A DNA stretch of 64,000 bases from a virus (taxonomy: Duplodnaviria; Caudoviricetes): positions 243,822-307,821 of IMG/VR virus record IMGVR_UViG_3300049988_000124. One strand, written 5' to 3'. This document shows positions 6,468 through 63,878 of the stretch, one piece after another. The notes under the pieces are model-generated. The model searched no databases, was not told the origin of the DNA, and saw nothing but the letters and a program-made list of their open reading frames with translations. The position numbers and the translations under genes were made by a program. Positions within the stretch are counted from its first letter, which is position 1. Each line of letters starts with the position of its first letter.

Positions 6468-7985
6468 TCAGTACGAACTAGTACAGTGAAAGATCTTCTG
6501 CAAGATCTGGCGAATCTCACCGATCTTGAACGGCTTCTTCAGAACCGTATATCCTTCAAGCTCTGCACTGTCAGAGAAACCAGTCACGAAGACCACTTCC
6601 AAATCAGGGTGAAGGAGCTTGGCTGAGCGGATGACCTGTGCTCCGTTCATAACGGGCATGGCGTAGTCAATGACGACCAGGTCAGGACGGTTGTCCTTCA
6701 GGTAGACCAATGCATCCATACCGTCGACCGCTGTCTTGACGTGGTGACCAAGAAGCGTCAAGATCTCCGAGAGCGTCTCCCGGACACCTGGATCATCGTC
6801 GACCAGGAGGATGTTCTTGGCCTCACACATCTGGATGAGATTACCGGCTACTACCTCTTCCTGGAAGATCGCTGCGTTCTTAACGACGGGCAGACTGATC
6901 GTGATCGTGGTACCCTTCTCCGACGTCTTCTTGATGTAGACATCGCCGCCTGACTGATTAGCCAGACCGTAAACCATGCTGAGACCAAGACCTGTTCCCT
7001 TACCAATATCCTTGGTAGTGAAGAACGGCTCAAAGACGCGCGCCGCAACATCGGCAGGAATACCAATACCGGTATCAGTGACGTTGATCTCAACCTCGTC
7101 ATTCTCGATGATCGTGGAGATCGTGAGACTACCGCCCTCGGGCATTGCGTCGCGAGCGTTGACCGCCAGGTTCAAGATAGCCAGTTCAAGCTGAACCGGA
7201 TCAGTGCGCACCACTACGTCGGTGATGTTGGAGGTGGAGATCTGAATGTCTGGACCGATGGTCCGGGTGATCAACTGCCTGACGTTCATGATGACCGGAG
7301 CCAGTTCCACTTCCTTGATCTGGAGCTTCTGGTTACGCGAGAACGTCAGGAGCTGTGCAGTCAGATGTGATGCTCTCGATATTGCCTCAATACCAACACC
7401 CACCCAGCGCGGTACACGGTCACTGTGGGGATTACTACTGATGAGCTCGAGGCTACCACTGATGGCTTGGACGAGATTGTTAAAGTCGTGCGCAATGCCG
7501 CCTGTTAACTGGCCCACTGCTTCCATCTTCTGTGACTGGAGCAGGTGAGTCTGTGCGCGCTCTTTCTCGTCCTTCTCGATCTTAAGCTCTTGGATCTTCT
7601 GCTCGAGCTGGCGATTAAGGGCATCAATCTTAGCAAAAGAAGGAAGCTTGATCGCTGTTGGAATAAGGAACCACAGACTACCCAAGGCTAGAATGGAGAG
7701 AAGTGAGGAAATGAGTTGCATGGTGGGTGAGGGTGAGTGGTTCTCCACGGTCATCCCAAAAACGGCCCAGGCTCTACCGAGCGCACAAACAGCATTTGAG
7801 ATCAGGAAGAACCAGATAAACTTGTTGTCGCGAAGGTCAGGGCGTTCCTTTAGAACCTTGGTCGACAACGTGGCATTAGTTGTGTGAAAAGCACCAGCGA
7901 AGAGATGGGTAAGAATGGAGGCAAGAACAGGCCAGGGATTCGGCCCGAAATACTGAACGGCTAATAGCCAAAAATCTGCGGACAC
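6468..7985 (-). CDS. membrane-bound hybrid sensor histidine kinase/response regulator
   Basis: H-box [11 protein letters not shown]-box [12 protein letters not shown]1 [14 protein letters not shown]2 GTGLGL; receiver with VDDD, IDYAMP, TG, KPF; N-terminal TM segments. Confidence 0.93.
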
Positions 7986-10180: not shown

Positions 10181-12193
10181 ATGGTACGAAAACTAAAGCA
10201 TGTAGCGATGCTCCTTGGAGCATGTATTTTTACACCCACTGAATCTCTGGCCCAGTGTTTCCAGAACGGTATTCCTTGCGGACAATCTACCACCGCCCCG
10301 TCAACAGGAACAACCACCCCAATCACGCCGGGTAGTAGTATCTTGATGGAGGGAACCAACGGTAGCAATACGGTTCCAGTGCTGACCGACTCTAATGGTC
10401 GCATCATCACCAACATCAACTCCCTTCCTGCTCTTCCCAACGGAATGAACACGATCGGTAAGATCAGTAACACGGTGTTTGATGTCACCCAGTCGGGTAC
10501 TTGGAATGTGGGAGTAACTGGACCGGTGTCGGTGACTGGTCAGTTCTACCCATCTGTTCAATCTGTCTCCCAATCAGGTAGCTGGTCAACGACACTTACA
10601 GGAACGCTTCCCGCGTTTGCCGCAACACCTACTGTTAACCTCGGCACCATCGGCTCCATCGCTACCGATGACAGTGTAAAGGAAGTGACAACGGCCTTGG
10701 GCACGCCCTTTCAAGTTGGAGGGACGATTGGAAACACTTCCTTCGGCGCGGCGCAGACCGGCTCCTGGACCGTTGGTCTTAGTAGTGGCACGAATACCAT
10801 TGGTTCAATCGCTAACACTGCGTTTGGGATTACTGGTACGCTTCCAGGATTTACAACCCCGCCGACCGTCAACATCGGGAGTACCGCAGGGCTCGCGTTA
10901 GATAGTTCGCTGGGCGGTCTATTCAAAGCGGGTCAGTTGATCGGTAACACCAGTTTTGACATCAGTGGTACGCTCCCTGCCTTTGCGGCTACACCAACCT
11001 TTAATGTTGGTACAACAAATGGTCTAGCACTCGATACTAGCGTGAATGGACTCTTTAAGGCGGGACAAAGTATCGGTAATACCTCCTTTGGTATTAGCGG
11101 CACGCTTCCGGCTTTTGCTAGTACGCCTACGGTAAACATCGGAAGCTCTCCAGTAATCACCACCTACCCCACCGCAATGGTGGCAACCTCTGCTCCTTCT
11201 TTCATCAGTGGTACTTACCGCCAGCTGAGTATGACCTTGGCTGGAGCCTTGCGGGTTGACAATAGCGGAGTTACCCAACCAGTAACTGGTTCGGTGACGG
11301 CTAACATCGGTACCGTCAACGGACTAGCCTTGGATACCACGGTCAATGGTTTGTTCAAAGCTGGACAGAGTATCGGTAACAGCTTCTTTGGCGCACGACT
11401 CCAGGATGCAAGTGGTGCAGCTCTTGGAACAAGTGGGAATCCCGTCTACGTTTCTGGTGGCGGTGGCGGTGGCACACCAACTGGCACTGCTGGTACGCCC
11501 AATAGCGCCGTTGTGTCTGTTCAGGGAATCAGTGGCGGTACACCACTGCCTGTGCAGAACACTGCTGCCCTTCCGGCGGGCACGAACACGATTGGTAACG
11601 TGAACATCAATGGTACGGTTCCAGTCTCTGGGACATTCTACCAGGCAACCCAGCCCGTTAGTGTTGCTAGTCTTCCCCTTCCCTCAGGTGCTGCCACCAG
11701 TGCCCTTCAGGGGACGATGAACACCAACCTGACAACCCTGGTCACCAACACCACTGGTGCCTCTACAGCAGCCCTCCAGACGAGCGGTAATGCTAGTCTG
11801 ACAACGGTGGCGGGAACTGTCTCTGCTGCTGGCACTCCTGCTAGTAATGCCGTTACGGTACAACAGCTGACCATGGCAGTCGCCCCGACTACGGTGGCTG
11901 GTGCATCAAGTGCGGTACTAAAGGGATCAGCCGGAACGCTCTACTCGATTAATCTCGAGAATGCCTCTACTGGTGGATACGTAATTGCCTATGATGGAGC
12001 TGTTCCATCTAGTGGTGCGTCGATCACGGCTAGCCTCATTCGGTATCATTACGCCATCCCGGCTAATGCCCCGTTTGATAAAGTCTTTCAAATGCCCGCT
12101 GCCTTTACGACACAGATCACCATTCTGTGTTCATCCAGCTTTACCACTTACACCCCGATCACATGTTCGCTCATCACTGGTCAGGCTAAGTAA
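10181..12193 (+). CDS. signal-peptide, Thr/Gly/Ser-rich repeat (fibre-like) protein
   Basis: Leader ending SLA/Q; internal ~44-aa repeats; C-terminal globular domain starting VLKGSAGTLYSI. Confidence 0.7.
   Translation: MVRKLKHVAMLLGACIFTPTESLAQCFQNGIPCGQSTTAPSTGTTTPITPGSSILMEGTNGSNTVPVLTDSNGRIITNINSLPALPNGMNTIGKISNTVFDVTQSGTWNVGVTGPVSVTGQFYPSVQSVSQSGSWSTTLTGTLPAFAATPTVNLGTIGSIATDDSVKEVTTALGTPFQVGGTIGNTSFGAAQTGSWTVGLSSGTNTIGSIANTAFGITGTLPGFTTPPTVNIGSTAGLALDSSLGGLFKAGQLIGNTSFDISGTLPAFAATPTFNVGTTNGLALDTSVNGLFKAGQSIGNTSFGISGTLPAFASTPTVNIGSSPVITTYPTAMVATSAPSFISGTYRQLSMTLAGALRVDNSGVTQPVTGSVTANIGTVNGLALDTTVNGLFKAGQSIGNSFFGARLQDASGAALGTSGNPVYVSGGGGGGTPTGTAGTPNSAVVSVQGISGGTPLPVQNTAALPAGTNTIGNVNINGTVPVSGTFYQATQPVSVASLPLPSGAATSALQGTMNTNLTTLVTNTTGASTAALQTSGNASLTTVAGTVSAAGTPASNAVTVQQLTMAVAPTTVAGASSAVLKGSAGTLYSINLENASTGGYVIAYDGAVPSSGASITASLIRYHYAIPANAPFDKVFQMPAAFTTQITILCSSSFTTYTPITCSLITGQAK
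10600..11390 (+). repeat. imperfect in-frame protein repeats (GTLPAFAATPTVNIG and GLALDxxVNGLFKAGQxIGNTSF)
   Basis: GTLPxF unit four times and GLALD..LFKAGQ unit three times in the translation; bounds approximate. Confidence 0.75.
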
Positions 12194-40979: not shown

Positions 40980-42977
40980 TTAATCGATGGGTTCCATCTG
41001 GACCGGTGAACCTGTCACCACGGGCCACACATCGTCACGACTGATGATATCGTGATACCCCATAAATTCGTCCATGATTCCGTGCAACTTTGGAATCATA
41101 TACGTTGCTGGGTTGTTCGTCGCCTGATCGATATTCTGATAAGCGAGAAGCGCACCAATGGAGCGCATCGGAATGATGCGGTTAAGGGAGCCGAACATGA
41201 CATTGTCAGGATCGGTCACGACGGGAACGTGGAAGTCATTGCGACTGGTGATCAAGCATGAGCGCACCAGGCATGACATGTGGGTGACGTGGGTTGGAAC
41301 CTTGCCCTCTTCCCAGACCAGGCGGCTGAGCTGCGCCATGAAGTGGTTGAGGGACTTGTAAGTCTCCACCTTCTTGGTGATGAGATCCGTGAAGTTCTTC
41401 ACGAACCGGCGAATGCTGTTGTTCACCACCGTGCACTGCATGACCGGCAGATTGGGGTCGATGTTGCGCAAGACCAACCAGTCGAGACCATCCTGCTTGA
41501 TGATGTCTTTGCGACTGTTCTTCAGAAGATTCAAGATCTCCGAGGAGAGATGGGGATAGTTGTTGGAATCCCCCTTCATCGCGGTCCTGGCCGTTACCCT
41601 GGTGATCGTCCCATCGGGTTTCAAGTGACCCACCGACATGTACTTGATCTCGGAGAAATATGCTCCGTGGAGCTCACCCTCGTCGACGATATACTTGAGG
41701 TCGTTGATCCTCGAGATATCACCTGGCTGGAAGCCGAAGGCGAGTGTCCCGATCGTCTTTCTAACCGCAGGCACCAGGTAGATGTCATTGGTCACCGAGT
41801 GCAGGAGGTTCTGCAGCTCGTCAGGGATATTGTACTCGGCTGCATTGGTCGTCGTCAGATGCTTGGTCGAGAGCACCTGCTGTGCAACAGGAGCACCAGT
41901 GTTGACGTTTGCCAGGAAGCCGACGTTGCCGTTCTTGGAGAACGACTTGGTAATCGTACCACCACAAGTCTCGCAATACCCATCGGTCCACAGACACATG
42001 GGAACATCGCGCATCTTCAAGGTCTTGCCGATTACCTCAGCGAAACGCTCACGCGTCAGCTCGATGAGTTCACCGTTTAGACCAAAGTAGAACTTACCCA
42101 GGTACCGCTCCACCGTACGGTGGTTAGGTGTGTAGGTCATGTAACCAGTGGAGCCACAATCACCCGGATACAGGCGCCAGCTGGCACTGCTCTGGATGTG
42201 GATCTTGCGGTTGTTATACTGGGTCAGCGCCATCTGCGACTTATTGTAGTGCGTCGCCTTCGAGGCCGAGCGGCTCTCCAGTGCCATGTCGACGATGTCG
42301 GTCATGCCCGACAAGAAGCCACCACGGACGGGTCGGCGGAAGAGATGGTCATCGGTATCCGTGCGCGGCCCCGCCGACATCACGAACTGAACGAACTGGC
42401 CCTCCTTTAGTGCACCGCACAACAGAGGTGCCCGGAAGACATTGACCGGAAGACGCGTGCTCTTCAGGGTCTCGATGACCTTGGCTGCCTGCGTCTTGAA
42501 GATGTCCTCCATCCGGTTGATGTTACCATCATCGATGTCGCCGTAGTCGATCGTACAGACCGCCCTGGCTTCAGGATGACTCAAGGTCTCCGCGATGCCG
42601 AAGATGTCCATGGTCTGGACGTGGTCACCCAGATGCGTGTAGCACATATTGTGTGCATTCATCACCGTCTGGATCATGTCATGACCCAGTTCCTCTCGGG
42701 TGTAGCCCATATCCTCCAGCGTCTGACTGATGACGGTCAAGACACGAGCATGCGAGGCGGCACCGTAGATCTCATCGACGTGTAGGTGTTTACGACTGAT
42801 GGGACGCATACGGTTGGTAAGCGGCATGGTGAGAAGAATGTTCAGCAGCATGTCGGAGCCGTAGAGTTCTACGTTACCATCGACACATTCGAGAGTGAAA
42901 AGATCGTTTGCTCGTTCTATGAAATACGTACGCCAATCTTCGGTGCGAGCTCTTTGTGGATCGTACAGTTCTGACAT
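40980..42977 (-). CDS. non-virion RNA polymerase beta'-like subunit, C-terminal part (phiKZ gp74-like)
   Basis: GDCGS, C..TDGYCETCG Zn site, trigger-loop QQVLSTKH; synteny. Confidence 0.85.
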   Translation of the reverse strand: MSELYDPQRARTEDWRTYFIERANDLFTLECVDGNVELYGSDMLLNILLTMPLTNRMRPISRKHLHVDEIYGAASHARVLTVISQTLEDMGYTREELGHDMIQTVMNAHNMCYTHLGDHVQTMDIFGIAETLSHPEARAVCTIDYGDIDDGNINRMEDIFKTQAAKVIETLKSTRLPVNVFRAPLLCGALKEGQFVQFVMSAGPRTDTDDHLFRRPVRGGFLSGMTDIVDMALESRSASKATHYNKSQMALTQYNNRKIHIQSSASWRLYPGDCGSTGYMTYTPNHRTVERYLGKFYFGLNGELIELTRERFAEVIGKTLKMRDVPMCLWTDGYCETCGGTITKSFSKNGNVGFLANVNTGAPVAQQVLSTKHLTTTNAAEYNIPDELQNLLHSVTNDIYLVPAVRKTIGTLAFGFQPGDISRINDLKYIVDEGELHGAYFSEIKYMSVGHLKPDGTITRVTARTAMKGDSNNYPHLSSEILNLLKNSRKDIIKQDGLDWLVLRNIDPNLPVMQCTVVNNSIRRFVKNFTDLITKKVETYKSLNHFMAQLSRLVWEEGKVPTHVTHMSCLVRSCLITSRNDFHVPVVTDPDNVMFGSLNRIIPMRSIGALLAYQNIDQATNNPATYMIPKLHGIMDEFMGYHDIISRDDVWPVVTGSPVQMEPID

Positions 42978-56353: not shown

Positions 56354-56438
56354 GGGAATACCTCCATAAAAACAAAAGACATAAAAGGAAGACAAGAGTG
56401 AGGCGTTTGCCCCACTCTTATATCCAAAAAGAAAATGT

Positions 56439-56514: not shown

Positions 56515-56651
56515 TCACACCATTAACCATATCGACATTGTAGAAACCATACGGTCGGCGTAACAATCGTTGGTAGGACTATTGTCCTTTTGCTTAAAGG
56601 GTCGGTCCAATTACCCTGTTCAAACAACCACTACAATATCGATAAAGGTAA

Positions 56652-56726
56652 TGGTGCCCCTTGTACGATTTGAACGCACGACCTTCGCTTTACAAAAGCG
56701 CTGCTCTACCGCTGAGCTAAAAGGGC
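56652..56726 (-). tRNA. tRNA-Thr(TGT)
   Basis: Cloverleaf, loop TT-TGT-AA, encoded CCA. Confidence 0.9.
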
Positions 56727-56739
56727 TAACCATTTTTGA

Positions 56740-56964
56740 CTACACACCGTTCTTGGGGTCTTGGGGTAGTGTGTCTAAACCATTGTAGAAAGGGACGGGT
56801 TCATGCTCATCGCCAACAGCAAAGATGGCGATGTCACCATCGACGATTTCGATCTGTGCCCGTCTATCCCACTTCATATGAATAAAGTCAGGCTTACCCC
56901 AGATACGAACAGCGGAGTGATATTCGTCTCCTCGAAAGCCGATAAAATGAACGATGGCTTTCAT
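56740..56964 (-). CDS. small hypothetical protein
   Basis: HFIGFRGDEY..A.RIWG.PDFIH..WD.RA pattern typical of small phage proteins. Confidence 0.6.
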   Translation of the reverse strand: MKAIVHFIGFRGDEYHSAVRIWGKPDFIHMKWDRRAQIEIVDGDIAIFAVGDEHEPVPFYNGLDTLPQDPKNGV

Positions 56965-56987
56965 GGTGGATTCCATGTTAGATAAAA

Positions 56988-57107
56988 CACCGTAGGTAGG
57001 ACTCGACAGCCTACTAACCCACTTCTTTCGGACAGTAGAGCATCTTTCATCTCATTTGCAGGCGGGTCTCCTGTTGTCCTAGCGTGTCCATCCACGCTGC
57101 TACGGTG
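56988..57107 (-). ncRNA. tRNA-like RNA with expanded anticodon domain (candidate)
   Basis: 8-bp closing stem CACCGTAG/CTACGGTG, D-like arm GCGT-GGATGGAC-ACGC, T-like arm GTAGG-CTGTCGAGT-CCTAC; no anticodon loop or CCA. Confidence 0.5.
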
Positions 57108-57217
57108 CTACTTCCTCGGGGGAGGAACTATGTATTCACTGTCAAGATTGCCAAAGCGCTCATAAGAGTCATTTAACCTCTATACCCCAAGCCATGAGGA
57201 AGAGAGATGGTTAAACG

Positions 57218-57444
57218 AAAGCGGACCTGCCGGGTGTGGTTACCCGGTCACGACTTTTCAGGCCCCATCAGAAGATCATTTCTGATATCCAATCGGCTAG
57301 GTTTGAGCCACGCCTGTCACCCGCTTTGACAATCTTGCTAGTGGATCTAAATCCCTACTGTGGCCGATGACGCACAAGCTGTGTCGGCATTTCACGTCTG
57401 TGTGCCCAACGGGACCGGGTTAGAGCCCAGCACACTCACAGTAG
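57218..57444 (-). ncRNA. structured two-domain ncRNA with H-type pseudoknot (candidate)
   Basis: Stems CTACTGTG/CACAGTAG and AAAGCGG/CCGCTTT enclose several hairpins; crossed GACG/CGTC and GCCGA/TCGGC helices; ORF-free. Confidence 0.55.
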
Positions 57445-57456
57445 AGAAGGACGTAT

Positions 57457-57684
57457 TCACATTCGTGTAAAGAAACTGCATCTAGGTCCAGCGGGTACGT
57501 GGTAGAACCGATCCCGCCACTGGTCATCGCCTTGTGCGAACTCACCTTTGTGACCATCGACTATGTACATGGGTACACCGTGATAGTCGACGATGTCGGT
57601 AATCTTACTCACGGATTTCTCATGGTCCGCGAAAGGCTTATGAATGCTGAGCTTGACAGGATCGCCAATCTTTAGCTTTGCCAC
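57457..57684 (-). CDS. small SH3/KOW-like hypothetical protein
   Basis: LKIGDPV start; GAGGA RBS. Confidence 0.55.
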   Translation of the reverse strand: MAKLKIGDPVKLSIHKPFADHEKSVSKITDIVDYHGVPMYIVDGHKGEFAQGDDQWRDRFYHVPAGPRCSFFTRM

Positions 57685-57685
57685 G

Positions 57686-57883
57686 TCAGTTCCTCACGAT
57701 TCGATTTTCATCGATCTCACTGAAGTCACTGTCGTCACGATCGAACTCGGTGTTACCGATAACAGCGATCCATCCCTTAGGAAAAGATGAACGACGCCAG
57801 AGAGCAATTGTCCACTGCTCCCCATCTCTCACCCAATAGAAACCAGGCTTTCTGGAGTTGGTTGCTTCCTCAAAAGTGGTCAT
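57686..57883 (-). CDS. small hypothetical protein (GFYWVR family, paralog 1)
   Basis: Start moved to MTTFEE; similar to 58362..58559. Confidence 0.6.
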   Translation of the reverse strand: MTTFEEATNSRKPGFYWVRDGEQWTIALWRRSSFPKGWIAVIGNTEFDRDDSDFSEIDENRIVRN

Positions 57884-57992
57884 GTGATTCTTTCGCAATA
57901 ACGACACCGTAGGGCCGTAGTGTGTTTGCAAGGGGACTACTATCTTCCTAAAAGGAAACGTATCCTTACGGTGCCGATAATGTAAAAGAGAA

Positions 57993-58069
57993 TGGAGCGA
58001 CGAGTCGGGATCGAACCGACGACCTAAAGATTTGCAATCTTCCGCAACTACCAACTGTGCTACCGCCGC
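57993..58069 (-). tRNA. tRNA-Cys(GCA)
   Basis: Cloverleaf, loop TT-GCA-AA, U73 discriminator, encoded CCA. Confidence 0.9.
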
Positions 58070-58088
58070 TCAAGTATAATGAAGCAAG

Positions 58089-58160
58089 CTCGAGTGACAG
58101 GATTCGAACCTGTGACCAAGGCATTAACAGTGCCCTACTCTACCGCTGAGCTACACTCGA
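58089..58160 (-). tRNA. tRNA-Asn(GTT), CCA not encoded
   Basis: Loop CT-GTT-AA, G73, canonical D and T arms. Confidence 0.85.
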
Positions 58161-58170
58161 GCTTGCTCCA

Positions 58171-58365
58171 CTACGGATTGATCCACTGGTTCAACGAATC
58201 AGCTGACCACAGAGGACGACGTCCCATCCAAATAGTCGGCTTTGGAAAAGGAGATAGCTCCCCGTTGATGTAAGCGAGAAGTGTTCCCATTCTCAGGCGT
58301 TCAAAAGAACTACGAGAAATAAGTAGCTTCTCACAAATGGCTTTGATTCCAAGGAGAGTAATCAT
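58171..58365 (-). CDS. AlpA/excisionase-like HTH protein
   Basis: LLGIKAICEKLLISRSSFERL...FPKP...GRRPLW....L.QWI. Confidence 0.7.
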   Translation of the reverse strand: MITLLGIKAICEKLLISRSSFERLRMGTLLAYINGELSPFPKPTIWMGRRPLWSADSLNQWINP

Positions 58366-58559
58366 GATGAATTCCTCACAATACGGAGTTCATCGATCTC
58401 TTGGAATTCATCGTCGTAGAAACGTTCATCGGTACTTGTTAGCATCCATCTCGATAGGCACGGAATACTATCACCGTGCCACTCAGCGATGACCCATTCG
58501 ACGGTATCCCTTACCCAGTAGAACCCGTTTTCTCTAACTGGCTTATCTGCTTGTTCCAT
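58362..58559 (-). CDS. small hypothetical protein (GFYWVR family, paralog 2)
   Basis: TAATG coupling with the upstream gene; GFYWVRD..W..A.W...EIDE.RIVRN shared with paralog 1. Confidence 0.6.
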   Translation of the reverse strand: MEQADKPVRENGFYWVRDTVEWVIAEWHGDSIPCLSRWMLTSTDERFYDDEFQEIDELRIVRNSS

Positions 58560-58849
58560 TATAGAACCTGCCAATCTTCAGCGAGAATATCAGATGTGCT
58601 AGGCACCCAAACAGCAACATCTTCATCCACAGTCTTTAGTGCAAAGTAAGCACGGTAAGGAATCATCTCACCCTCACCGAAATACTCTTTGGCTGCACCG
58701 GTCTGCACTGGGTAGGATGCTGCGGGAACCATGTAGGCGAACATGCCCTTACCGTTCCAGCCAGCACGTGTGATACGCTTGCCTTCTTTCAAAGCTCTAA
58801 GCGCTATTCCGAAGTCGAGCTGACTACTTAAAGAGATTTGCCTCCCCAT
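58559..58849 (-). CDS. DUF2829 / Tad2-family anti-defence nucleotide sponge
   Basis: FG.AL..LKEGKRITRAGWNGKGMF...W.PS.SDILAEDW. Confidence 0.85.
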   Translation of the reverse strand: MGRQISLSSQLDFGIALRALKEGKRITRAGWNGKGMFAYMVPAASYPVQTGAAKEYFGEGEMIPYRAYFALKTVDEDVAVWVPSTSDILAEDWQVL

Positions 58850-59450: not shown

Positions 59451-59459
59451 CCATCACTG

Positions 59460-59610
59460 GCGAGATGGATGCTGCACTCGCGGTATGGAGAAATTATCTC
59501 CTACTCTACCTTGAACGGTTCAACCGGGAAGGGTCGCTCAACGTCTAGGCGTGATCTATTAGTCATAAGCGTAATGCCTAATAAACCGACGATTACAGCA
59601 TCCATCTCGC
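59460..59610 (-). ncRNA. rod-closed structured ncRNA, module B (candidate)
   Basis: 15-bp perfect inverted repeat gcgagatggatgctg/cagcatccatctcgc, extended by further helices. Confidence 0.6.
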
Positions 59611-59636
59611 GATTGACGGATACGTCTTAATAGATA

Positions 59637-59806
59637 CTCACTGGCGATGAGGATGCTGTACTCAGCATGAGGCCGGAATCTCATTAACCTGCGCGGAGGG
59701 CGGCGGTCTCGACGCTAACAGGCTACTAACTCAAATGAACGGTTTTGGGTAACAGGGAGACCATCATTTAAGCTAAACTGAATACAACACCCACAACGCC
59801 AGTGAG
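59637..59806 (-). ncRNA. rod-closed structured ncRNA, module A (candidate)
   Basis: About 35-bp closing helix with G.U pairs only on the minus strand; internal GGTCTC/GAGACC stem; ORF-free. Confidence 0.6.
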
Positions 59807-61250: not shown

Positions 61251-62759
61251 TTATGCTGTTGCTGTGTACTTGTTGTGTCCACGCCAATAGTGAGCGTTTT
61301 GACGAACTTCCTCGAAGACCGGAGGGTTAACCAACACCCCGTGCTCGAAGATAACCTGGAGGTAGTCCTGCTCACCTTCCAGTAGCTCGTGCTCTTGGAT
61401 GGTAACGAAGTCGACGTACGGATCGGGGAAGTGGTTAATCTCACGACGCACAACGGCGAAGCGACCACCCTTTGATGCCTTAGTCGGATCGGTCTTGACT
61501 TCCTTCCTGATCGACCTTGCACTACCGTTGATGACGACCTCAGATGCCTTCATGGCAAAGCGGTGAGTGTCCCGCTCCACATCGTGTTGCATGAGGCCCC
61601 CACCTGAGCCAAAGGCGATGTTGTCGACCGACCACTTGTGGTAGACAACACGCTGAAGGATACGACGGAGACTCTCCTCGTTGATCCCATCGCCTTGAAT
61701 AAGACCCACGAACTCGGGGAGCACTCGGAAACCCTTCTCATTCACCGTACTACCGACCAGACTCTCGATGAGGTCAAGAAGGTGGACGACGTTGATAACC
61801 GGGTCACCAGAGTCCGGACGCAGGATGATCTTGATGTTGGAGGCAATGAGCTTTTCCAACAGACCACAACCACCCTTATCCGCCGGTGTCATCCACATGT
61901 GAACAGCTTCATCCTGATCGTAAGTGTCGATCACGACCGAGACAGGGTAGCGACCCCCCAGAGGATTGATCTCGTCCTTGAACTGCTCAATCACATGCTC
62001 GTAGAACGCTTGTTCATTCTCACGGCCCCAGGATGTGGTGACCGAATGCTCAGACGCTGGAATCGAGAAGCCGAGCATGGCTTCGGTTCGGTAGGTGTGC
62101 TGACCAAAGGTAATGCCAAGGAGATTGTCGGTCACCTGGAAGTTCACCAAGTGCGCCATACCGGACACTCCTGCATCCTCGGTGACCCGGCAACCACGTG
62201 CGGAGAAGTCAACGACCTTGAACTCAGCAGTGCCCTCAGTCCCGGAGATCTGAAGATACTCCTCAAGCAGCGACCACCAGCGCATCCCACGGGTTGCAAT
62301 CGTAGTCGGCATCCAGACGCGCATGAGCATGGTCTCGATCGTGATGCACAGACCTGCCACATCCTCGTCGAGTGACTCGATGACACAGGCAACACAACCC
62401 TGTGGGATTACTGTTCCCTCAGCAATCTGCTTGATGCGAATCGGTAGCCTTCCGTCGTAACGATCGCGCACGATCTCAGCACCCACTCGGTCGAAGGGAA
62501 TACCGTGTAGCGGAAAGAACTTGGCAGCATGCTCAATGAACGCCGTCGTCCAGCGCTGGGTCAGGAAGTAACGCAGCGTGTAGACGTTACCGAACCACAT
62601 GATCTCACTAAAGCCGCCGCCCTTGCGAGCCTCGATATACCCGTACTCGGAGGTGAGCATGGGGTGTTCGAATTTCCAATGTGATCCCTTGTAGGTGTCC
62701 TTGTTCAAGATAGGCTGGGTGAGGAGCTCACCGATGGTATCAAAGAATTCCATGGTCAT
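61251..62759 (-). CDS. nadV: nicotinamide phosphoribosyltransferase (NAMPT/NadV)
   Basis: DTYKGSH, DFSARG, IPASEHS..TSWG, SVVIDTYD, RPDSGDP, IQGDGIN, FGSGGGL, K..KTDP.K.SK.GR. Confidence 0.93.
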   Translation of the reverse strand: MTMEFFDTIGELLTQPILNKDTYKGSHWKFEHPMLTSEYGYIEARKGGGFSEIMWFGNVYTLRYFLTQRWTTAFIEHAAKFFPLHGIPFDRVGAEIVRDRYDGRLPIRIKQIAEGTVIPQGCVACVIESLDEDVAGLCITIETMLMRVWMPTTIATRGMRWWSLLEEYLQISGTEGTAEFKVVDFSARGCRVTEDAGVSGMAHLVNFQVTDNLLGITFGQHTYRTEAMLGFSIPASEHSVTTSWGRENEQAFYEHVIEQFKDEINPLGGRYPVSVVIDTYDQDEAVHMWMTPADKGGCGLLEKLIASNIKIILRPDSGDPVINVVHLLDLIESLVGSTVNEKGFRVLPEFVGLIQGDGINEESLRRILQRVVYHKWSVDNIAFGSGGGLMQHDVERDTHRFAMKASEVVINGSARSIRKEVKTDPTKASKGGRFAVVRREINHFPDPYVDFVTIQEHELLEGEQDYLQVIFEHGVLVNPPVFEEVRQNAHYWRGHNKYTATA

Positions 62760-62768
62760 GTCTCCCCC

Positions 62769-63878
62769 TTAAATCGACAAGTCGTCGAACTGGTGTAGGA
62801 AATACTCAAAGGGATTGTAGAGATCCTCGAACATCATGGACCTCACGACCTCGTCGGTATTCCACCAGCGAGCCTGCCTGGCATCATCAGCACCCTTGAT
62901 AGCGGGACGTGGATAGTGAGCTGGGATCACCAGACCATAAGCCATCGAGAAAGTAACTTCCCGATTTGACCGCCAGGGATTGTCGAGCATCTTCTCGCCG
63001 CGAATGAATGAGGCTAACATGTCACGGGTCAGCCAATCGTTGAGATCAAGAATCTGTGTTTCTTGATTGACCTCATCGAGCATTGCTTCTTCGAAGGTCT
63101 GATAAGCCCTCTTGTGACCACCCGGAGAAGCCCACAGTCCAAGACCTGGCATCTGTCCACGCTGAACCAGACAGACCGAACCGGCATGGTACATGAAACC
63201 ATCAGCACACGGGAATTGCTGCGGATCATCAGTAAACGGATTCTTCGGGAACAGGGGCAAGTATTCCTTGACCATGAACTTATACTCAGCGCGCATCAAC
63301 TCGAACTGCGCGGTGTGTACCCACTGACGAAGGAACACGTATGTCCCTTGGGGGATTACCTGAGGCTCCGAGCGATATAGAAGCTCGACCTGCGCTGCTG
63401 GATCTTCAGCGTCGTAGATTGAGTGTCTGATGTCCGTTGCCGAGACCGGTAGTTCCTGCTCGCCGAGCACGGCCTGTGTGGCAACCGCTCCCCATTCAGG
63501 AAACATCTTCAGATAGTACGATGTACCATCTTTGGCGTAACCGACGAGTGCAATACGGGGCTCATGACCAAGCTTCAGGTTAGCTGCTTCTCGTGTCGTG
63601 ATGCGCTGAACATCGCGCACCCACTGGAGATTACTCTCGCGGTCTTCCACTGGGAAGATGTAGACCCGGTCATTCTCAGCTGGCGTCAGTGAGCCACGAA
63701 TCATTCCCACTACCTCATCAAAGGTGTGAGGGTTCTTGAAGTGAGGCGCTTCAAAGGCAGAGCCAACGAAGATAAACGCGTACTGACCTGAGAGCAAGCA
63801 GGCTCGGATGTTCTTTAGATGAGGTTCCGTCGGCGGACGCATCCGGCCAGCGAACGCACAAATGTCATACATACCCAT
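62769..63878 (-). CDS. NMN adenylyltransferase-Nudix fusion (NadM-Nudix type)
   Basis: GR..P.T..H, VGSA, NP..F.E, SATDIR; GLWA.PGG, GADDA..A.W. Confidence 0.88.
   Translation of the reverse strand: MGMYDICAFAGRMRPPTEPHLKNIRACLLSGQYAFIFVGSAFEAPHFKNPHTFDEVVGMIRGSLTPAENDRVYIFPVEDRESNLQWVRDVQRITTREAANLKLGHEPRIALVGYAKDGTSYYLKMFPEWGAVATQAVLGEQELPVSATDIRHSIYDAEDPAAQVELLYRSEPQVIPQGTYVFLRQWVHTAQFELMRAEYKFMVKEYLPLFPKNPFTDDPQQFPCADGFMYHAGSVCLVQRGQMPGLGLWASPGGHKRAYQTFEEAMLDEVNQETQILDLNDWLTRDMLASFIRGEKMLDNPWRSNREVTFSMAYGLVIPAHYPRPAIKGADDARQARWWNTDEVVRSMMFEDLYNPFEYFLHQFDDLSI

Follow-up and report, generated by a model that had tools for sequence, protein, structure and literature searches.

A conserved non-coding RNA and a probable second one beside it in the tRNA/tmRNA island of a phiKZ-like phage

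The window considered here, i.e., the whole 64,000-nt stretch of DNA that was analysed, makes up the last part of a virus record of 307,821 nt whose sources are leaf and phyllosphere samples. The record represents a 308-kb, phiKZ-like phage. On the minus strand, from about position 59800 down to a terminator-like site at 56392-56421, the window holds an island of five tRNA genes, a permuted tmRNA gene and several stem-closed cassettes. The region of interest lies between tRNA-Cys and tRNA-Thr, and the original prediction placed it correctly inside the tRNA island. The tmRNA carries the tag ANDN, and one open reading frame (ORF) near the island has relatives from Sphingobium/Sphingomonas; taken together, these features suggest that the host is probably alphaproteobacterial. 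A Tad2-like (DUF2829, PF11195) anti-defence gene is found directly after the tmRNA gene, both in the window (58559-58849, minus strand) and in a distant relative (10001-10264 of contig L129). Upstream of the island resides an NAD salvage pair composed of a nicotinamide phosphoribosyltransferase gene and a cytidyltransferase-family gene (61251-63878, minus strand).

Two relatives serve as the main references: contig L127, retrieved from a close strain, and L129, a 270-kb contig of a distant syntenic phage, of which L130 is an identical copy. The distance to L129 is illustrated by a neighbouring core gene, which differs by 38% between the two phages. L129 encodes a phiKZ-type RNA polymerase subunit that is 28% identical to its counterpart in Xanthomonas phage RTH11 and has a 62% homologue in the window's genome. 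The gene that precedes this subunit gives a faint match to chimallin, and its homologue is also present in the window's genome. The two genes make it likely that the phage is nucleus-forming; the chimallin Pfam model, run without a positive control, gave no match in the window's genome. Small ORFs of the island (at about 57450-57883, 56727-56976 and 58171-58574) are absent or replaced in related strains, which, as judged from sequence comparison, would make the island a hotspot of gene exchange between conserved RNA genes.

The original prediction described a single folded unit of 227 nt at 57218-57444. Every sequence word that it named is found at the indicated place on the minus strand, and its view that the region is non-coding also holds, because only ORFs of 26-45 aa overlap with it and alignment to the distant homologue requires indels that disrupt the reading frame. 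Folded as drawn, however, the stretch is no more stable than shuffled sequences (z -1.36, i.e., about -1.4, on the minus strand and -1.68 on the plus strand, where 21/200 and 13/200 shuffles, respectively, were as good). The stretch is composed of two neighbouring folded non-coding RNAs on the minus strand, not one; these are referred to below as unit 1 and unit 2 (Table 1).

Table 1. Units, helices and arms of the two minus-strand RNAs (window positions).
Feature	Position	Strand	Remarks
Unit 1	57355-57444	-	90-nt element; 8-bp closing helix 57437-57444/57355-57362
Candidate pseudoknot	57363-57398	-	57395-57398/57369-57372 and 57384-57388/57363-57367, with a small hairpin between
Linker hairpin between the units	57343-57354	-	4 bp; single L127 change sits in the loop
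Unit 2	57134-57346	-	213-nt multibranch ncRNA; z -6.4; homologues in L127 and L129
Closing helix, 5' arm	57322-57337	-	16 bp; imperfect extension to 57346
Closing helix, 3' arm	57143-57158	-	imperfect extension to 57134; outside the originally predicted stretch
Conserved core	57159-57321	-	163 nt; z -2.3 alone
Most conserved 5' segment	57294-57322	-	invariant words 57317-57322 and 57296-57311
P2, small hairpin	57294-57310	-	5-bp local hairpin; alternative long-range pairing 57304-57308/57158-57162
P3, sequence-variable hairpin	57267-57286	-	7 bp in the window; in L129, 6 bp with a different sequence
P4	57224-57264	-	two helices separated by an 11-nt bulge on one side; ends of the bulge invariant
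P5, length-variable hairpin	57169-57218	-	shorter in L129

Unit 2 extends 84 nt beyond the 3' end that had been assigned to the RNA. A repeat finder identified an inverted repeat (57322-57346/57134-57158) that reaches past the flagged stretch and forms the long closing helix of the unit. The predicted folding energy is -88.4 kcal/mol on the minus strand compared to -73.3 kcal/mol on the plus strand. In the original prediction the second domain was instead closed by a 7-bp helix (57321-57327/57218-57224), which competes with the longer closing helix for the same 5' strand. The pairing probability of this short closure is approximately 0 and forcing it costs 10 kcal/mol, whereas pairing with 57153-57158 in the long helix has a probability of 0.92-1.0; moreover, it is in the long helix that the L127 variant compensates. 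These results refute the 7-bp closure. The three inner stems proposed for the domain were recovered as arms of unit 2.

In addition to the two words of the 5' segment, the invariant letters of unit 2 are found at 57255-57262, 57242-57251 and 57155-57163, mostly in unpaired positions or short helices. These letters permit two mutually exclusive arrangements, i.e., either the 5-bp local hairpin P2 or a long-range helix of five perfect pairs with the 3' tail, beside the closing helix, the latter accompanied by a contact of 57294-57298 with the P5 loop. Because the letters are invariant and come from only two lineages, both arrangements are candidates.

The homologues of unit 2 span 1216-1428 in L127 and 10748-10939 in L129. 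The latter was found with an E-value of 6e-14 in a search with the single window sequence and displays about 70% identity over 141 aligned nt of the core; by itself it folds with z -6.3. Its closing helix comprises at least 23 bp of mostly different sequence and its P3 is a different hairpin, and the P4 bulge is 11 nt long in both phages. A comparison of L127 with the window over 57134-57449 revealed 14 substitutions. Ten of these affect the two arms that form the closing helix, three are located in unit 1 and one in the linker loop; the core has none. In other words, 0/163 core positions changed compared to 10/50 in the helix arms (Fisher p 2e-7), and three pairs of the closing helix (57334/57146, 57327/57153 and 57341/57139) changed on both sides in a compensatory manner. 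Among the three sequences, two-sided changes are seen in 6/16 pairs of the closing helix and 2/6 outer pairs of P4, i.e., eight pairs, a number reached in 0/500 shuffles. Pairing is retained at 97% in the alignment, as compared to 29-41% in slid controls. The alignment consists of only three sequences, of which two are close, with a structure drawn from one of them. The unit is known from two independent lineages, both uncultured, and covariation within the invariant core is for this reason not detectable. The differences between L127 and the window amount to 0-1% in the tRNAs, 9.5% in the tmRNA part and 21% in the Tad2-like ORF, and the core of unit 2 is as invariant as the tRNAs. Unit 2 is composed of a conserved core within a helix whose pairing, but not sequence, is kept. 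It is almost certainly a real conserved RNA, and sequence comparison gives good support for an uncatalogued RNA family with two known lineages.

Ahead of the unit 2 homologue in L129 are two stem-closed cassettes (10462-10585 and 10609-10721) without Rfam match; the island of this phage includes a permuted tmRNA but no tRNA call. At the same genomic position a related 243-kb phage (L155, 9100-9610) has a run of long perfect hairpins, with no tRNA, tmRNA or unit 2.

The evidence for unit 1 is of a different kind. The segment 57354-57444, folded alone and without the pseudoknot, has z -1.6, i.e., the fold by itself is not significant. The pseudoknot put forward in the original prediction is sterically feasible and intact in the one available variant, L127, where its pairs are invariant; no two-sided change is found in it. 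As a modelled structure it is plausible. The bare pseudoknot pattern occurs 1578 times in the genome, and once when combined with a stacked 8-bp closing helix, the latter being a post hoc descriptor. In viral contigs the pattern gave 119 matches, none with the flanking sequence of unit 1, which were read as chance. Three of the 90 positions of unit 1 differ in L127, one in a loop and two changing Watson-Crick pairs into wobble pairs; all are compatible with the fold and none is compensatory, an outcome that could be due to chance (about 1 in 4 by the authors' estimate). The conservation of the unit exceeds that of the adjacent ORF (p 2e-5), and its advantage over the tmRNA part is not significant (p 0.08). 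In two strains the boundary of an ORF deletion is located 5 nt upstream of its closing helix.

Outside the window and L127 unit 1 was not found, and there is no distant homologue. In L129 unit 1 is absent and unit 2 is preceded by unrelated cassettes, which indicates that the two units are separable. Three helices within 1 kb on the minus strand, those closing the cassettes at 57911-57973, 57355-57444 and 56994-57107, have a 7-8-bp word in common, which is reversed in unit 1. Elsewhere in the genome this pairing is seen only as one trivial palindrome, at 42122, and the word may be a processing or protein-binding tag. Unit 1 is reasonably likely to be real as a separate small RNA or cassette. 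As modelled, it is probably a lineage-restricted second cassette with a compact, tRNA-sized fold that includes the pseudoknot.

Perfect helices of at least 16 bp (with at most three G-U pairs) that close 90-260 nt occur only four times in the 308-kb genome, where they enclose tRNA-Leu, tRNA-Asn, the cassette at 59451-59619 and unit 2. In the cases of tRNA-Asn (58077-58173 of the window) and tRNA-Leu (7801-7940 of the genome), inverted repeats extend or enclose the acceptor stem. The island also harbors other elements on the minus strand. The tRNA-Cys gene is followed by a cassette of about 96 nt (57890-57985) that is likewise stem-closed and is kept in L127 with five changes, although tRNA-Cys is absent there. 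A 139-nt multibranch cassette in the gap between tRNA-Thr and tRNA-Lys (56518-56656) has a 26-nt closing repeat and z -5.5, and is without Rfam match. A tRNA-shaped element with an enlarged anticodon arm (56988-57110, z -2.7) is kept in strain X3 with two changes. Two rod-like cassettes upstream of the tmRNA, at 59451-59619 and 59637-59806, fold with z -8.6 and -9.8, respectively. In the tRNA array of another phage, a tRNA-shaped sequence with an atypical D arm and no ARAGORN call is found (L004, 6722-6792, minus strand; also L005).

Searches of Rfam with gathering and E-value thresholds gave no match over either unit, and blastn against 50,697 phage records and plasmids returned nothing significant for either. 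Scans of viral, metagenome and genome collections with the conserved words revealed no additional homologue, and a pattern scan for P4 gave two matches, both of which are tRNA T arms. A scan for related phage tmRNAs identified two records, both without unit 1 and unit 2. No unit was found in the fetched, fragmentary flanks of relatives identified via a 565-aa flanking gene (L002, L003, L155-L161), most of which have no island at this site. With the model R1, none of the 151 alphaproteobacterial genomes searched gave a match, and a paralogue is likewise lacking in the phage's own genome. A literature search with the conserved words returned no paper; the approximately 10,000 candidates of PMC10690425 were outside the comparison.

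The original prediction had recognised no known motif, and this view is upheld: neither unit matches Rfam, and tests for RNase P RNA, ribozymes and rRNA mimics were negative. For RNase P RNA, inspection of the alignment showed no agreement of the words conserved in unit 2 with CR-I, CR-V or the P4 helix and its bulged U. Twister, twister sister, pistol and hatchet models gave no match at E up to 10, and the twister and pistol words are absent from this region of the window. No core word of the hammerhead, in which CUGANGA and GAAA are joined by stems I-III, is present in either unit of the window, a look-alike in L129 has no stem II partner, and Rfam gave no match. A loose descriptor of HDV-like ribozymes gave one match per strand, neither of which fits the fold of either unit. 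Neither Rfam nor the L129 homologue supports a likeness to hatchet or twister, to the 16S decoding site, or to a k-turn or CUA anticodon loop. GOLLD and ROOL models gave no match at E up to 10 to units of 213 and 90 nt, so that of the suggested resemblance to these RNAs the similar setting stands, but size and models differ.

A 154-nt contig identical to 57158-57311 is found in a phyllosphere metatranscriptome (run X7) at a depth of 3.8. The contigs of this run give neither strand nor ends and could originate from DNA carry-over or from an operon transcript; the match is a weak hint that the core of unit 2 is transcribed. Contigs of X7 also cover tRNAs and the tmRNA, with some cover on one ORF. 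Several protein-coding stretches have no contig, and neither does unit 1, an observation that is uninformative about this unit.

The data may be accommodated in a model where units 1 and 2 are separate small RNAs of a same-strand tRNA/tmRNA operon, cut from one precursor transcript. Because such helices also enclose tRNA genes in this genome, the closing helix of unit 2 most likely serves its release or protection, for which the operon transcript would be cut by an enzyme of the RNase III type and trimmed. No RNase III gene was found in the phage, i.e., the host enzyme would be needed. A long, sequence-variable helix around a conserved RNA resembles the RNase III processing stems of stable-RNA precursors, except that the RNA enclosed here is uncatalogued and the cleavage putative. 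The core would then act in trans, where the invariant unpaired words on variable hairpins would form a putative surface to which a protein of the host or the phage binds. Unit 2 may be a decoy or scaffold that sustains translation against host defences, a role suggested by its neighbours alone, i.e., the tRNAs, the tmRNA and the Tad2-like gene found in both phages. The whole chain of stable, trans-acting RNAs cut from an operon transcript, with unit 2 binding a protein, is given about an even chance.

An alternative is that the units are mimics of tRNA or of another ribosome ligand, with a direct action on the ribosome or a decoy role towards anticodon nucleases. The neighbouring tRNAs, tmRNA and tRNA-shaped RNA are consistent with such a role, as are the size of unit 1, which is that of a tRNA (a stack of 8+5 bp plus another arm of roughly 12 bp), and the multi-arm junction of unit 2. 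Neither unit, however, has an ARAGORN or Rfam call as tRNA or tmRNA, a CCA end or a T-loop consensus. The longest one-mismatch matches to 16S rRNA, 23S rRNA and tmRNA, in identity or complementarity, are 9-13 nt, which is about the level of shuffles. A YrlA-type Y RNA is not indicated either, as the phage has no TROVE/Ro60 gene (the control was positive). Mimicry is considered unlikely.

Even less likely is a catalytic role, with unit 1 or unit 2 as a new ribozyme for self-cleavage or for the processing of its neighbours from the operon transcript. Catalytic cores typically display invariant unpaired words next to variable hairpins, as is seen in unit 2, where several invariant long-range pairings are possible. 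In addition, tRNA-linked theta ribozymes are known from phages (PMC10879173), and the strand order of unit 1 is that of HDV P1-P2-P3. On the other hand, no Rfam ribozyme model reaches E 10, and in unit 1 a single A (57368) between the P1-like and P2-like 3' strands takes the place of P1.1, P4 and the catalytic C of J4/2. The nearest upstream tRNA ends at 57993, about 550 nt away and not within 5 nt of a cleavage site as for tRNA-associated theta ribozymes. The hammerhead core differs between the two phages, and a nuclease-dependent helix would be redundant with self-cleavage. For the ribozyme or aptamer originally suggested, no positive evidence was obtained, and the known self-cleaving classes do not withstand their tests.

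The same low weight is assigned to a reading where the structures are mere processing or stability signals, i.e., spacers of the operon transcript that are subsequently discarded. An island full of stem-closed cassettes, three of them with a common helix word, would fit such a scenario, and it describes unit 1 better than unit 2. In unit 2, however, it is the core rather than the helix that is conserved (see the Fisher test above), and this core persists in L129, where the island has no tRNA call. A slightly more remote prospect is that the core of unit 2 represents a new catalytic or switching class of RNA with two exclusive folds, the local hairpin and a compact knotted form built on the long-range pairing and the P5 loop contact, which would process or control the translation-support RNAs of a nucleus-forming phage.

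A cis-acting riboswitch or leader of the next gene is very improbable for unit 2. Its invariant letters permit mutually exclusive pairings and the homologue in L129 is followed by an ORF that begins some 45 nt further on; yet each of the three genomes has a different downstream neighbour (a tRNA-like RNA, an unrelated sequence and an unrelated ORF), no terminator is found at the 3' end on the minus strand and the closing helix isolates the core from downstream sequence. Two related strains, one of them the source of L127, keep the RNA region where the ORFs at about 57450-57883 and 56727-56976 are absent, and this loss of flanking ORFs, together with the non-conserved downstream gene, argues against a role in cis. 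The least probable reading is the single two-domain RNA of 230-310 nt first proposed: the units are adjacent and kept together in close strains, but only unit 2 occurs in L129, this unit is closed by a helix of its own in place of the proposed closure, and the X7 contig is confined to unit 2.

The idea of a novel phage non-coding RNA beside tRNAs is thus retained for unit 2, on the basis of its homologue, its covariation and the lack of an Rfam match, and is likely for unit 1. Known phage RNAs offer partial parallels to the trans-acting RNAs favored here. The theta (minimal HDV-like) ribozymes of gut phages form a nested double pseudoknot with P1.1 and P4, where the catalytic C starts J4/2 (PMC10879173). 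Unit 1 is similar to these ribozymes in its small size, putative pseudoknot, strand order and location in a phage tRNA region, and differs from them in the missing elements discussed above and in its distance from a tRNA 3' end. Grad-seq of phiKZ, a jumbo phage of a related kind, revealed abundant, structured ncRNAs of about 100 and 180 nt (PMC8545117), which originate from UTRs or intergenic regions of protein genes and have no sequence match to the units described here. The units are about a third to a quarter of the size of GOLLD and ROOL.

GOLLD and ROOL, in general, are structured RNAs that are often phage-borne and adjacent to tRNAs. These large, ornate RNAs are without assigned function (bioRxiv 10.1101/2024.12.08.627333). 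The RNAC and RNAD species of T4 (genes rnaC and rnaD) are small stable non-tRNA RNAs of the tRNA region, also without assigned function (PMC3014915, PMC9697503). Like these, unit 2 is encoded within the tRNA cluster of a phage as a structured RNA that is not translated. There is no homology at blastn sensitivity, although a remote homology is possible, and the phage described here is phiKZ-like with a probably alphaproteobacterial host. Stable accumulation was shown in T4, compared to a single 154-nt contig of low depth in X7 for unit 2. RNAC and RNAD, at 120-140 nt, are shorter than unit 2.

Since the description of T4 RNAC and RNAD, no function has been assigned to the small stable RNAs of phage tRNA clusters. 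Unit 2 adds an uncatalogued family in which an invariant core is clearly set apart from a disposable closing helix. It is small enough for transcription, probing and use as bait, and a binding partner would address what the RNAs of phage tRNA clusters do.
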